DNA of 64,000 bases, taken from positions 26,077,748 to 26,141,747 of the forward strand of contig CM119265.1 in NCBI GenBank assembly GCA_051294375.1, given 5' to 3'. This document shows, piece after piece, positions 38,630-52,472 of the stretch (its first letter is position 1; each line of letters starts with the position of its first letter). The DNA comes from Paraspadella gotoi. Lineage: Eukaryota > Animalia > Chaetognatha. The notes under the pieces are model-generated. The model saw only the letters and a program-made list of their open reading frames with translations, was not told the origin of the DNA and searched no databases. The position numbers and the translations under genes were made by a program.

Positions 38630-38991
38630 TGTATCATCGAAGATGGAATCAGAACCAGAAACAGAATCGGATCCGCGACTCGGATGAAATCAACCAAGGA
38701 CTCGCCGATTGGATGAATCACCATCGGAACGGGCCAATGAGAAGACGGGCTTTATGCCATCGGGAAAATGAACTCGTGTCGATGATCCGATCCTGTAGAA
38801 ATACTGACCATTTTTGTATTGATTCCATCTGTCTCAAATTCTCACACCGTCTTGCTTATCTTCTATCTGAGAATAAAATCCACTTTGGTTTCATGTTGAA
38901 ATCTCTGTCTACTTACTTAAATGTGGTGGCAGCGGTGGGATTCGAACCCACGCCTCCGCAGAGACTGGTGAAATCTCTGTCTACTTAAATG
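38630..38991 (+). mobile_element. LTR-like unit plus extended tRNA-Leu PBS (copy 1, divergent subfamily)
   Basis: ATTGG/CCAAT pair, TAGAAATA, CACCGTC, AGAATAAAATC, then TTAAATG|TGGTGGCAGCGGTGGGATTCGAACCC... Confidence 0.65.
38924..38970 (-). pseudogene. 3' half of mature tRNA-Leu (AAG/TAG type) with CCA, retro-copied
   Basis: Minus strand CACCAGTCTCTGCGGAGGCGTGGGTTCGAATCCCACCGCTGCCA-CCA gives the anticodon 3' strand, long variable arm, T arm, acceptor 3' strand and CCA. No 5' half. Confidence 0.85.
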
Positions 38992-40755
38992 GTATGTTAA
39001 ATCATAGAAAAATGAATAAGGAAGTGAATGCGGGGAAAGAACTGGCATGTATCGTATTCATTGACTGAATAGAAAGTATTCATCATTCGGTGACGAATGA
39101 GAGACTCGTGAATGAGGCTTCGAATGTGACACATTCTCGTGTGACGTCATCAATTATGAATTAAGGATTCATAATTTTTGCAGAAACGCCGACCGTTTAC
39201 GTTTCTCGCGAGGACTAAAAGGAGGACGATGACAACAACGACGACGATAACGACGACAACAACGACGACAACAACGACAACAACAACGACGACAACGACG
39301 AGCTCTCACCTCGACAACTTCCGTTTCGGAAGAAGAAGGAAAATGAAGACGAAGAGGTTTTCGTCTTTGCCGTCGTCGTCGTCGTCGTCGTCATCATCTT
39401 CGTCGAGGTCGTCAACTCTGACGCGGAAGACGTCGTTGTCGACGCAGATGACGCTGCCGACGCAGATGTCGCTGCCGACTCTGATCCGATGTCGGCTCCG
39501 GACGTTCTGTTGTTAGATTTAAATAGAGAGAGAGTCGACGAAGGTTTTTTCTCTTTCTCTTCTCCACGACGAGATTAAATATTTTTTTTTAAATAAAGGA
39601 AAATAATTCGTTTATGTTTAATTGCTGTGGTCGGCATTTAATTGTTAATCAATAATAAATGATAAAAAAAGAATTAATAAAAAAACTCTCGTTTTTCGTT
39701 CGTTAGATTATTTCATTTCTCTTTTGTTTGTTTTTCTTTCTCATTTTTTTTGTTTGTTTTTCCGCCATTTTGAATCCTGGCCTCGTTTCCGTCGACGACT
39801 TCGTGCATAATTCAGTTTCGCGAAGATGAGAGAGAGAAAAATATAATCAACGGGGGAATAAAGTTTGTTTGGGTCCGGAATTCCTTCGTTCCTTTGTTTG
39901 AGGTTTATCGCGTCTGTCTGTCCGTATGTGTGTCGAACTTGTCATATTAATTATTAACTCTTAACTCTCGTTCTTTACTAAATTTTCTTCATTTCATTTT
40001 AGACACTTCTTTTCTTTTGTTCTTCGTTTCTTTAACCTCCAAAAATAACTTCGCTATTTATATCCATTATTCTGCTTTCATTTTCATTTTTCTCTCCTTT
40101 CTCGTTTTCGCCTTTTCTTCCTTTTTCTTTTTTCCCTCCCTTTCTTTTCTTGCCTCCTTTTTTTCTTTCTTTCTTTCTTTCCTTCTTCCTTCCTTCCTTC
40201 CTCTTCTTCCTTCCTTCCTCCTTCCTTCCTTCCTTCCTCTTCCTCCTTCCTTTCCTTCCTCCCCCATTCCTTCCCTTCCTTCCTTCCTTCCTTCCTTCCT
40301 TCCTTCCTTCATTTACGTTCTGCGCCTTCTTTTCTTTATTTCTTTTCTTTCCTCCCTTATTCTTTTCCGCTTTCCATTCTCTCAACATTAATATTTTTTT
40401 TAAAAAAAAAATCTTTTTCTCTCTCTCTCTCTCTCTCTCTCTCTCTCTCTTCTTCTCTTCTCTCTCTCTCTCTCTCTCTCTCTCTCTCTCTCTCTCTCTC
40501 TCTTTCCAACCTTACTTATTTTGTTGATTGTTATGTTTCAGTTTTCTCTGTTAATGTTTGCTGCTTTACCATCTGACGATGTTTAAAAAAAAAACGCTCT
40601 TTGCTTTCCCTTCCTCTGCATTCCGCCCGTTCTGTCTCGGCGTTGTTGTTTTTGTTTTTCCAACATTTCAATTTTCTTCCCCCTCGTTGCCGTAAACAAC
40701 CGCGCGGCGCGTCATCGGCGCTGTCGATTGCAAAGCCTGCCCCCTCTCTTTTCAG

Positions 40756-40917
40756 CTTACCTTTGTTTTGATCGGCCTCGTCGGGGCGGGAAAATCGTCG
40801 AAGATGTAAACTCCGATCGCGGCCAAAGTGGAATTTTCGAGCTTTGAATTCGTCGGTGGTAGAAATCGAGGTGGGATTCCACCATCGTCTGACCTGGGAG
40901 TGGGATGGCGGACGGAG
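40756..40917 (+). CDS. Candidate exon with a P-loop NTPase Walker A motif (LTFVLIGLVGAGKSS) and one in-frame stop
   Basis: Acceptor CTCTCTTTTCAG|, donor GGAG|GTAAGG, 162 nt. Hydrophobic strand plus GxxGxGKSS; TAA at codon 18 (error or pseudogene). Confidence 0.35.
40761..40893 (-). CDS. Alternative candidate exon on the opposite strand (133 nt)
   Basis: Long pyrimidine-rich tract with CCCAG|GTC, donor AAAG|GTAAGC; all three frames open. One reads SDDGGIPPRFLPPTNSKLENSTLAAIGVYIFDDFPAP (weakly cadherin-like). Confidence 0.3.
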
Positions 40918-51099: not shown

Positions 51100-51590
51100 T
51101 TCCTTTCGATTTCCTTGCATTCTGCTTCGTCTTCCTGCTGTGCTGCTTCTGTCTTCTGTCTTCTTTTTCCTTTTGCGATTCTCTTTTTCTGCCGCTTCTG
51201 TCTTCTCGCTTCTGTCTTCTCGCTTCTTGTCCTGGTTCTTTCCTTTCCCGATTTCCTCTTCTGCTTCTGTTTTCCTGCTTCTGTGGTCTATTTTCTTGTC
51301 TTTCTGTCTTCTGTCCCTGCTTCATTCTTTCCCTTCTTGCCTTCCTGTCTCTGCCTTCGTGCTCCCTTTCTGTCTTCTGCTTCTTCTTTCCTTTTCGATT
51401 CTCTCTTTCTGCCTTTCTGTTTTTTCTGCTTCCTGTCTTCTGTCTTCCTGTTTTTTCTTTCCTTTTCGATTTTCTCTTCCTGCTTCTGTCCTTCTGCTTC
51501 CTGTCTTCTNNNNNNNNNNNNNNNNNNNNNNNNNGTCTTCTGTCTTCTTTCCTTTTCGATTTCTCTTCTGCTTCATTCGATTCAACTCAA
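51100..51590. repeat. Compound (TTCTGT/TTCTGC) low-complexity repeat
   Basis: Seen directly. Confidence 0.85.
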
Positions 51591-52079
51591 TTTTCTTTCT
51601 CTTCAAATTTCACAAACCCCTTTCACTTCCACTTCAGCCCGGGCGCTCCTCTGTCGTCCTCCCATTTCTACCACCTCCTTTCATTACTTTGCCACCCTCG
51701 CCACCACCTCGGCCAACCCTAATCCACCCCCTCCGTTTATCCACCCACCTGACTTCCACCTCACCTCCGTCCCCCCCTTCGTCTCTCGCCCGACCGATGA
51801 TTAGTTTAGAATGAAGATTAATTTTCTTTTTCTCTTTCTCAATTTGTCTCTCATTATTTCCTTCTTCTTCTCTCAACATTTTGCCGTTTATAATTGCCAA
51901 TTAGTTTATTCATTTTTCCGCTCATAAGTTTTCGATCATATTTTTTAAAAATATTATATTTATTTATTTTTTTTTCTTCTCATAGAATTGGCATGAGGTT
52001 GAACAGTAAAAAATAGTAATAACAAGAAAAAACGTTAAAAGAATTTTATCAAATGATTTAAAAAACTAGCATCGCAGGA

Positions 52080-52472
52080 GTAACAATCGGAGATCGGAGA
52101 CTCGGGCGATCTCCGCAGGAAATGGAATCGCCGAATCCCGATTGGTCAAGCATTGAACCGGAATCGACCAATCAGCTTGCAGAATAATTGGAACTGAAAA
52201 TTTTACCCACGTCGCCGATCCTCTTCCTTAGTTATAAATAGACTTAGCTTGTTATAGTTTCAGTAGCATTGAACAAGACTCCTGCGTGTGTCTCACCGTC
52301 ATCTTTATTCTCAGAATAAAATCTCATCTCGATTTCAACCATAGAAATCCATGAGCTTTTCTTTAAATGTGGTGGCAGCCGTGGGATTCGAACCCACGCC
52401 TCCGAAGAGACTGGTGTATAGTATATAGTAATCAAATCAAATCAAATCAAAATAGTAGTTTTTCCTTAAATG
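52080..52472 (+). mobile_element. LTR-like unit plus extended tRNA-Leu PBS (copy 3)
   Basis: GTAACAATCGG start, ATTGG/CCAAT, TATAAATA, AATAAA, TTAAATG|TGGTGGCAGCC..., then (AAATC)n and a repeat of AGTTTTTCCTTAAATG. Confidence 0.7.
52370..52416 (-). pseudogene. 3' half of mature tRNA-Leu with CCA, retro-copied
   Basis: Minus strand CACCAGTCTCTTCGGAGGCGTGGGTTCGAATCCCACGGCTGCCA-CCA. Confidence 0.85.

Follow-up and report, generated by a model that had tools for sequence, protein, structure and literature searches.

LTR-like units carrying a copied half of tRNA-Leu in the chaetognath Paraspadella gotoi: candidate integrated by-products of retrotransposon plus-strand synthesis

Plus strands that overrun their primer tRNA are known from HIV-1 and the yeast Ty elements, and are treated in both as unable to complete replication (PMC13191261, PMC8599865, PMC5371799). 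In HIV-1, the read-through form of plus-strand strong-stop DNA, P5, is described as a minor product that stops at ms2t6A37 of tRNA-Lys3 and can neither transfer nor integrate (PMC13191261, PMC8599865); in Ty1 and Ty3, the first plus strand, once extended into the tRNA, is displaced and becomes a dead-end product that builds up in particles (PMC5371799). Here, three units comprising an LTR-like body and tRNA-Leu complement are described from a 64-kb stretch of Paraspadella gotoi CM119265.1, the whole of which is referred to as the window. Like P5, they join U3-R-U5 to primer tRNA copied beyond position 58 to modified base 37: copies 1 and 3 hold U3-R-U5 and mature tRNA sequence with CCA, ending before modified position 37, and copy 2 holds 34 nt. 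They differ from P5 in appearing germ-line fixed with a TSD, in using tRNA-Leu and in carrying a rebuilt U5 tip. They likewise resemble the Ty1/Ty3 dead-end in that an LTR strand runs on into the primer tRNA and takes no part in normal transfer, although Ty3 copies 12 nt of its tRNA compared with 47 here, and section 2.2 of PMC5371799 does not describe such DNA as integrated or as bearing a duplicated tip.

Several described repeat classes share part of this layout. PbTRIM (PMC3532108), with a TSD preference for ATAT, and ta-TRIM (PMC4558846) are similarly non-coding, with a tRNA-Leu PBS directly behind a Pol II LTR and a 4-bp TSD; TRIMs, however, are described as having two full LTRs with a PBS of 8-15 nt and a PPT between them, whereas the right-hand repeat here is a tip of 16-21 bp, the tRNA match extends over 34-47 nt and the ends read CAT...ATG. 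Helenus and TRIMp3 (PMC10886601) are also non-autonomous LTR elements with tRNA sequence, a 4-bp TSD in animals and, in some cases, a Leu PBS, but their tRNA-like Pol III promoter lies within the LTR, whereas here an antisense 3' half with CCA lies outside it, at the PBS. A scan of the LTR bodies found no B-box-like sequence inside them, and the LTR motif CTCAGAATAAAAT has no match in the supplement of PMC10886601. Troyka and the Zam-clade errantiviruses share LTR termini that depart from TG...CA (PMC12440569, PMC3601003); yet Troyka, reported to have no members among hexapods, has CG...CG ends with TSDs of 3 bp (PMC12440569), and Zam ends are AGTTA...TAAYT (PMC3601003), in contrast to CAT...ATG and 4-bp TSDs here. 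The units are not tRNA-derived SINEs (only positions 38-76 are present, without an A box; CCA is retained and the TSD is of 4 bp), nor, with no Rfam ribozyme family matched in the repeat, retrozymes. What they share with Gypsy-type LTR elements is a flush TSD within the 4-6-bp range in two of the three copies, a PBS behind the LTR, and an internal promoter with a polyA signal; canonical TG...CA inverted ends are absent. A search of the accessible literature, outside Repbase, Dfam and most subscription papers, turned up no account of LTR-tRNA half-tip inserts in a genome or of LTR ends reading CAT...ATG.

The units lie in the same orientation (+ strand throughout), and a profile of their three LTR bodies matches these loci and no others across the 64-kb window, bearing out the sequence-only reading that first proposed them. 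The starts given there (38630, 43186 and 52080) are corrected, as every unit opens with CATCG, at 38635, 43150 and 52070. An LTR-like body of ~300 bp ends in the heptamer TTAAATG in all three, and the complement of CCA and the tRNA follows directly, as had been seen. Copy 1, of a divergent subfamily, consists of a body at 38635..38923 (CATCG...TTAAATG), 47 nt of complement to mature tRNA-Leu positions 76 to 38 with CCA (38924..38970) and a repeated LTR tip of 21 nt (38971..38991), between a left GTAT (38631..38634), the terminal part of a TATG microsatellite, and a right GTAT (38992..38995). Copy 2 follows a target 4-mer ATAT (43146..43149) and has a body at 43150..43460, 34 nt of tRNA complement whose last base lies in the variable arm (43461..43494), and a T-rich tail that may contain a degenerate LTR tip and whose right end is uncertain (43495..43523); a second ATAT lies at 43520-43523. 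Copy 3, a member of the abundant family discussed below, has its body at 52070..52369, 47 nt of complement to positions 76 to 38 with CCA (52370..52416), a low-complexity filler of 40 nt (TATAGT twice, AAATC four times; 52417..52456) and a repeated tip of 16 nt (52457..52472), flanked by CTAG (52066..52069 and 52473..52476).

The signals expected of a Pol II LTR were largely as the earlier reading had listed them. Inverted ATTGG and direct CCAAT stand 26-27 bp apart in each copy (38708 and 38734; 43234 and 43260; 52141 and 52168), and AATAAA lies at -52, -52 and -55 relative to the LTR end in copies 1, 2 and 3 (38872, 43409, 52315). The TATA-like box claimed for each unit holds for copies 2 and 3, which have TATAAA at -137 (43324, 52233) and an initiator-like TCAGT at -109/-110 (43352, 52260); copy 1 has TAGAAAT only (38796). 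LTR identity of copy 1 to copies 2 and 3 is 52-57% (141/270, or 52%, against copy 3). No gag or pol was found: none of 114 window ORFs (113 of the 116 complexity-filtered ORFs plus one more) reaches the Pfam cut-off, with five weak matches. The possibility that copies 2 and 3 are paired LTRs of a single 8.6-kb element was rejected: a TSD and a PBS of its own belong to copy 3, and no coding sequence was found between the two copies.

As had been stated, the complement to tRNA-Leu runs for 47 nt with CCA in copies 1 and 3; in copy 2 it is 34 nt long and differs from copies 3 and 1 at 4-5 positions. The 47-nt parts fold as a T-arm and class II variable arm, and neither goes on to the 5' anticodon stem, of whose expected bases 0/5 and 1/5 are present. 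In tRNAs reading CUN codons, m1G37 is expected, and the 47-nt copies stop at position 38, adjacent to it. In the tRNA part of copy 1, the first 17 nt match the 3' end of A. mellifera tRNA-Leu-AAG, by eye against Fig. S2A of PMC10886601. ARAGORN detects no tRNA gene. Copies 1 and 3 are identical at 45 of 47 tRNA positions and share nothing thereafter (7/20); since their LTRs are only 52% alike and the tails differ, the sequences point to separate events of unit formation. Fresh copying of the tRNA at each event is supported by this disparity, but not by position 11 of the tRNA part, where copies 2 and 3 share a mismatch absent from copy 1 and the A. mellifera tRNA.

The sequence-only reading had tRNA complement followed by no internal retrotransposon sequence. 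There is indeed no internal region, but copies 1 and 3 continue to a second copy, of 16-21 bp, of the LTR tip of their own subfamily (...TTAAATG), and then to the TSD. The tip of copy 1 corresponds to the terminal 25 nt of the copy 1 U5 less one 4-nt repeat unit (21/21, one gap), is joined through 2 nt of microhomology, and matches other copies at 9-11 of its last 16 nt; that of copy 3 matches its own U5 end at 14/16, copy 2 at 16/16 and copy 1 at 11/16. No shuffle in 300 matched as well for the copy 1 tip against the copy 1 LTR or the copy 3 tip against the copy 2 LTR, and 4/300 did for the copy 3 tip against its own LTR; the copy 2 tail (11/13 to the U5 end) is not significant alone. A 4-bp TSD is flush with the tip in two of the three copies, GTAT in copy 1 and CTAG in copy 3, that of copy 2 being degenerate; a 4-mer matches at such spacing by chance at 524 of 58,130 window positions (0.009), or ~8e-5 for both TSDs. 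With the PBS, the tRNA extension and the second tip all inside the TSD, rather than the TSD flush with a single LTR and the PBS lost, the label of solo LTR was wrong.

Because the tip is flush with the TSD, the termini are CAT...ATG and not TG...CA. These ends match as inverted repeats at 6-7 of 12 positions, and with 4-bp TSDs and a 7/12 match one might imagine a MITE-like DNA transposon, its short inverted ends reading CAT...ATG, that once captured a tRNA cDNA; this is scarcely credible, however, given that the 3' end recurs internally, that promoter and polyA signal are arranged as in a Pol II unit, that the tRNA part sits where a PBS would, that the tails are unlike and that the tRNA is conserved far above the LTR. 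Scarcely more plausible, and in our view very improbable, is that a LINE-type enzyme added a tRNA retrocopy, truncated on its 5' side, to the terminus of a solo LTR, the tip being the target duplication of 16-25 bp from that insertion. Copy 1 has the geometry for it, a direct repeat flanking the tRNA 3' half; but the nick would have had to fall precisely on the LTR terminus, where the PBS lies, in each of three separate copies, 40 nt separate tRNA from tip in copy 3, and no free tRNA retrocopy with such a junction occurs elsewhere in the window.

We consider it probable, on balance, that each unit arose in its own event as a by-product of a Gypsy-type LTR retrotransposon and was integrated: an over-extended plus-strand strong-stop cDNA re-primed on U5. 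Such a cDNA had been proposed, and the complete U3-R-U5, the CCA, the stop at position 38 and the lack of a PPT or internal region fit it; the proposal was incomplete, as a bare LTR with tRNA has no right-hand integrase end, which the duplicated U5 tip supplies. Reverse transcriptase would read beyond m1A58 of the tRNA-Leu primer, where it normally stops, and stall at m1G37. Four further steps (RNase H action, re-annealing, left-end duplexing and integration) are inferred. Firstly, RNase H would remove the copied tRNA, leaving a 47-nt 3' overhang unable to pair past an 18-nt PBS. Secondly, by microhomology or slippage, the overhang would re-anneal 16-25 nt inside U5 of the tRNA-freed minus strand and be extended to a blunt end; the filler of copy 3 is likely slippage synthesis. 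Thirdly, ordinary PBS annealing and minus-strand extension would make the left end duplex. Finally, integrase would use both ends, giving the 4-bp TSD, and any looped-out minus strand would be lost at repair or replication. What the DNA itself displays is the complete LTR, the tRNA complement with CCA to position 38, the subfamily-matched second U5 tip and the flush 4-bp TSD. Since Ty1/Ty3 dead-end plus strands accumulate in particles, such substrates would be plentiful; 4-bp TSDs and a Leu PBS are frequent features of Gypsy elements in animals and of their TRIMs; and integrase binds 8-15 terminal bp (PMC3601003), which tips of 16-21 bp cover. The units would be unable to copy themselves, so that a two-LTR parent with CAT...ATG termini would be required elsewhere in the genome.

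Against over-extended cDNA stand the absence of a two-LTR parent among the family members of the window, the end of copy 2 at 34 nt without a clean right end, and the tRNA form of all three members (with no plain solo LTR), a high rate for an error product; if sampling were random its lower 95% bound would be 0.37, but the window was chosen for this feature. The shared position-11 mismatch also counts against it, unless it reflects an isodecoder or a repaired PBS heteroduplex, as does the fact that neither tip is identical to the inner U5 (a 4-nt indel; 2/16 substitutions). CAT...ATG is, moreover, absent from the integrase motif table of PMC3601003, so that a Gypsy integrase is assumed. Both the mismatch and the imperfect tips would be accounted for if the parent were a two-LTR element or TRIM that had inherited a 47-nt over-extended PBS, an enlarged version of the short over-extension sequences of lentiviral primers (PMC13191261), the units being deletions, during plus-strand transfer or after insertion, that begin just behind the PBS and leave only the final 16-25 bp of the 3' LTR; the copy 3 filler would then be leftover internal sequence. 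We hold this to be unlikely: copy 1 exits the tRNA exactly at position 38 with zero internal bases, copies 1 and 3 have nothing in common past it, 96% tRNA identity would have to persist across LTRs that are 52% alike, and three deletions sparing just the tip would need a cause at the level of reverse transcription anyway.

The form of all three copies and the abundance of the family could also suggest that the LTR-tRNA-tip unit is itself mobile, a non-autonomous family copied and inserted as such by a helper element. Propagation in LTR-tRNA form had been offered as an option by the earlier reading; it is disfavoured by the three differing tails, the tips proper to each subfamily and the lack of a ribozyme and of the 3' U3-R and PPT that LTR-type copying requires, and a transcript from the initiator would drop U3. 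No PPT was found upstream of the units, and no polypurine tract before the repeated tip. Rfam matches at E values up to 5 within 36000-56000 include no ribozyme family, those over the units being only weak and of tmRNA/tRNA type, and conserved RNA structure in the LTR is unsupported (folding z-scores of -1.71, -1.25 and +0.69 against shuffles, with an unfavourable covariation term). A mobile unit seems to us decidedly improbable.

If re-primed, over-extended cDNA is the correct origin, dead-end plus strands that overrun into tRNA reach the germ line through a short template jump that rebuilds an integrase end; the copies would record where reverse transcriptase stalls on tRNA in vivo (m1G37, the variable arm), the shortest end accepted by a retrotransposon integrase would be 16-21 bp here, and they would point to an LTR lineage with CAT...ATG ends, of a kind that annotation tools based on TG...CA would overlook. 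Such units form a repeat class prone to mislabelling as solo LTRs, tRNA pseudogenes or SINEs. More tentatively, and with doubts of our own, the units may belong to an LTR lineage not yet described, with integrase ends of CAT...ATG and a reverse transcriptase that routinely passes m1A58, the LTR-tRNA half-U5 tip being a main inserted form, in hundreds of copies; the copies would then be a germ-line archive of tRNA-Leu modification stops, and 'dead-end' plus strands would be systematically rescued.

Elsewhere, the five matches to the junction motif among public viral contigs are all unrelated, without tRNA or LTR similarity; metagenome contigs gave no match to the subfamily LTR motif, and their five matches to a degenerate CCAAT-pair motif are all due to chance (at most 21 matching bases). 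In public sequencing runs, whose contigs were aligned only to copy 3, over its LTR body and left flank, 651 and 409 contigs match, and the LTR family of copy 3 is abundant. The 72 contigs aligned from run X9, only guessed to be RNA, carry no information on transcription. Contig depth drops toward the LTR 3' end, a trend confounded by subfamily divergence and left-out records. In two runs, single contigs finish at the LTR end with CTTCGATG, which inverts the start of copy 1 exactly, and several among the matches listed terminate at the LTR end or within ~10 nt of it; both observations support CAT...ATG termini. The flank-element junction of copy 3 is spanned by single contigs in two independent samples.

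Each of the three co-oriented LTR-like units picked out by the sequence-only reading was recovered in the window and is real, and a profile scan of the 64 kb found no fourth family copy; starts previously placed at 38630, 43186 and 52080 move to 38635, 43150 and 52070 (copies 1, 2 and 3), where the first bases are CATCG in every case. The bodies (289, 311 and 300 bp) all finish in TTAAATG, with pairwise identities of 215/296 (copies 2 and 3), 162/283 (1 and 2) and 141/270 (1 and 3). Of the promoter and polyadenylation signals claimed earlier, the ATTGG/CCAAT pair and AATAAA hold in register across all three copies, and TATAAA holds in copies 2 and 3, followed 27–28 bp downstream by a TCAGT initiator of the Drosophila type; the layout suggests U3-R-U5. 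The U3 ATTGG...CCAAT pair also forms a 6–8-bp inverted repeat with a ~20-nt spacer in all copies (52141–52172, 43234–43264 and 38708–38738), which could represent paired NF-Y sites or a short hairpin; taken as a whole, the units showed no significant folding.

The units had been viewed as tailed by tRNA alone, a view that overlooked a short second copy of the U5 end (the tip) and a TSD after the tRNA part in copies 1 and 3. In copy 1 the tip is 21 nt, repeating the final 25 nt of that copy's U5 less one 4-nt unit, and its joint with the tRNA part has a 2-nt microhomology. In copy 3 the tRNA part is followed by 40 nt of low-complexity filler and a 16-nt tip, identical to its own U5 at 14/16 positions, to copy 2 at 16/16 and to copy 1 at 11/16. 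Both are direct repeats of the LTR's right tip. Because these tips adjoin matching 4-bp TSDs, which lie flush with them (GTAT in copy 1, CTAG in copy 3; chance ~0.009 each), the inserted unit is TSD-LTR-tRNA-tip-TSD, 357 and 403 bp long with CAT...ATG ends. On the left copy 2 carries ATAT; its right end is T-rich and degenerate.

On the minus strand, the 47-nt tRNA segment in copy 3 runs from position 38 through the 3' anticodon-stem strand, class II variable arm (3-bp stem, 4-nt loop), paired T-arm with A at 58, and acceptor strand to discriminator A and CCA. The first 17 nt in copy 1 equal the end of A. mellifera tRNA-Leu-AAG in the accessible part of PMC10886601 (Fig. S2A); as the copied segment lacks the anticodon, the isoacceptor is a deduction. 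Copies 1 and 3 agree at 45/47 tRNA positions and at 7/20 beyond, and neither extends into the 5' strand of the anticodon stem (0/5 and 1/5 expected bases), so both stop at 38, adjoining position 37, where m1G is expected in tRNAs reading CUN codons (PMC13191261). The tRNA-Leu complement proposed from sequence stands at 47 nt with CCA in copies 1 and 3, and in copy 2 it is 34 nt long, with 4–5 mismatches.

In retroviral plus-strand synthesis, copying covers U3-R-U5 plus 18 primer nucleotides and halts at m1A58. A minor plus-strand product runs to position 37 and is unable to transfer (PMC13191261), overrun cDNA reportedly fails to integrate (PMC8599865), and in Ty1/Ty3 the first plus strand, once extended into tRNA, is a dead-end product that is displaced and builds up (PMC5371799). 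The units work like the P5-type product and the Ty dead-end plus strand, but differ from Ty and retroviral overrun strands by an added U5 tip, comparable in length to the 8–15 bp at the terminus bound by integrase (PMC3601003); they look like over-extended, tRNA-carrying plus strands plus a U5 tip. Under this strong-stop reading, RNase H would remove the tRNA, freeing a plus-strand 3' end that could re-prime inside U5 on a minus strand that no longer carries tRNA, either directly (copy 1) or presumably after slippage (copy 3); the left end would be completed via PBS annealing, and integrase would then insert the rebuilt product. The far better conservation of the tRNA part than of the LTR, the three differing tails and the subfamily-matched tips argue, on sequence comparison, for separate events behind copies 1–3.

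Against the strong-stop reading, firstly, the tRNA form occurs in all three family members here, many for an error, in a window chosen for that feature; by analogy with Ty, recycling could make such inserts more frequent. A self-propagating LTR-tRNA-tip unit, the next-ranked rival, would carry the tRNA form in every copy, but is distinctly improbable: no 3' U3-R, PPT or ribozyme was found in the units, and hence there is no apparent self-copying route. Secondly, copies 2 and 3 have a position-11 variant in common; it calls for an isodecoder, repair of the PBS heteroduplex (a route whose 50:50 inheritance PMC7472051 discusses) or parental inheritance. The main rival, in which the parent inherits its 47-nt PBS and is later cut back to the tip by deletion, would supply the last of these and is unlikely. 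Thirdly, the tips differ slightly from the inner U5. With no two-LTR parent seen in the window, and CAT...ATG unmatched among LTR ends in the accessible parts of the literature compared (including PMC12440569 and PMC3601003), the Gypsy assignment is drawn from the 4-bp TSD and the Leu PBS.

Contigs from four public sequencing runs were compared with 51900–52369 (copy 3 left flank and LTR body), giving 651, 409, 149 and 72 matching contigs, of which only 93 of 651 and 41 of 409 in the first two runs were at least 99% alike. Over three element bins, depths summed to 162–958x that of the flank in the first run and 165–539x in the second; this ratio is not a copy number and, read loosely, points to a family in the hundreds. 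Single contigs span the copy 3 left junction in two samples, so this junction is no artefact of assembly. At the LTR end, two runs each yielded one contig terminating in CTTCGATG, which exactly inverts the eight bases that open copy 1, and several among the contigs listed stop at or near the same end; these contig ends support the CAT...ATG termini and say nothing on sequence beyond them in other copies.

The earlier label of solo LTR-like falls: class-membership tests rejected solo LTR, TRIM, Helenus, Troyka, SINE and retrozyme as identities. Literature for comparison comprised accessible portions of PMC10886601, PMC12440569, PMC3532108, PMC5371799, PMC8599865, PMC13191261, PMC13524379, PMC3601003, PMC7472051 and PMC4558846. 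No report of integrated LTR-tRNA-tip units was found in the literature searched; as Repbase, Dfam and subscription papers lay outside that search, this LTR family may already have a name elsewhere.

The window is rich in AT and in microsatellites; it contains 19 N runs, its CpG observed/expected ratio is 1.17, and none of 114 ORFs compared with Pfam reached a cut-off. A second repeat family of ~230–330 bp has three copies (16466–16693, minus strand; about 21870–22200, plus; 34895–35122, minus) that share a highly conserved core, GGGGCGCTTAACCC...CTGTAACACGGTG...AGCTCAGGAC, which by eye resembles what we take to be a twister-type LTR motif; a search of the copies at 16466–16693 and about 21870–22200 against Rfam returned no twister. 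A 2.3-kb inverted duplication (20507–22759 and 34278–36392, 80%) and a gap-broken direct one (27507–31175 and 31709–35309, 81–93%) are likely in part assembly redundancy around N gaps. Further inverted duplications of 84–96% adjoin N gaps (12790–13232 and 19643–20053; 15445–16072 and 18539–19259). A direct duplication of 78% (50263–50588 and 50677–51044) has scattered indels in its second copy that look like uncorrected long-read fill. Six or seven copies of a ~52-bp unit form a tandem repeat at 45585–45931, and a dispersed repeat of 80 bp, with a (TTAA)n run at its end, lies at 3112–3192 and 49058–49140.
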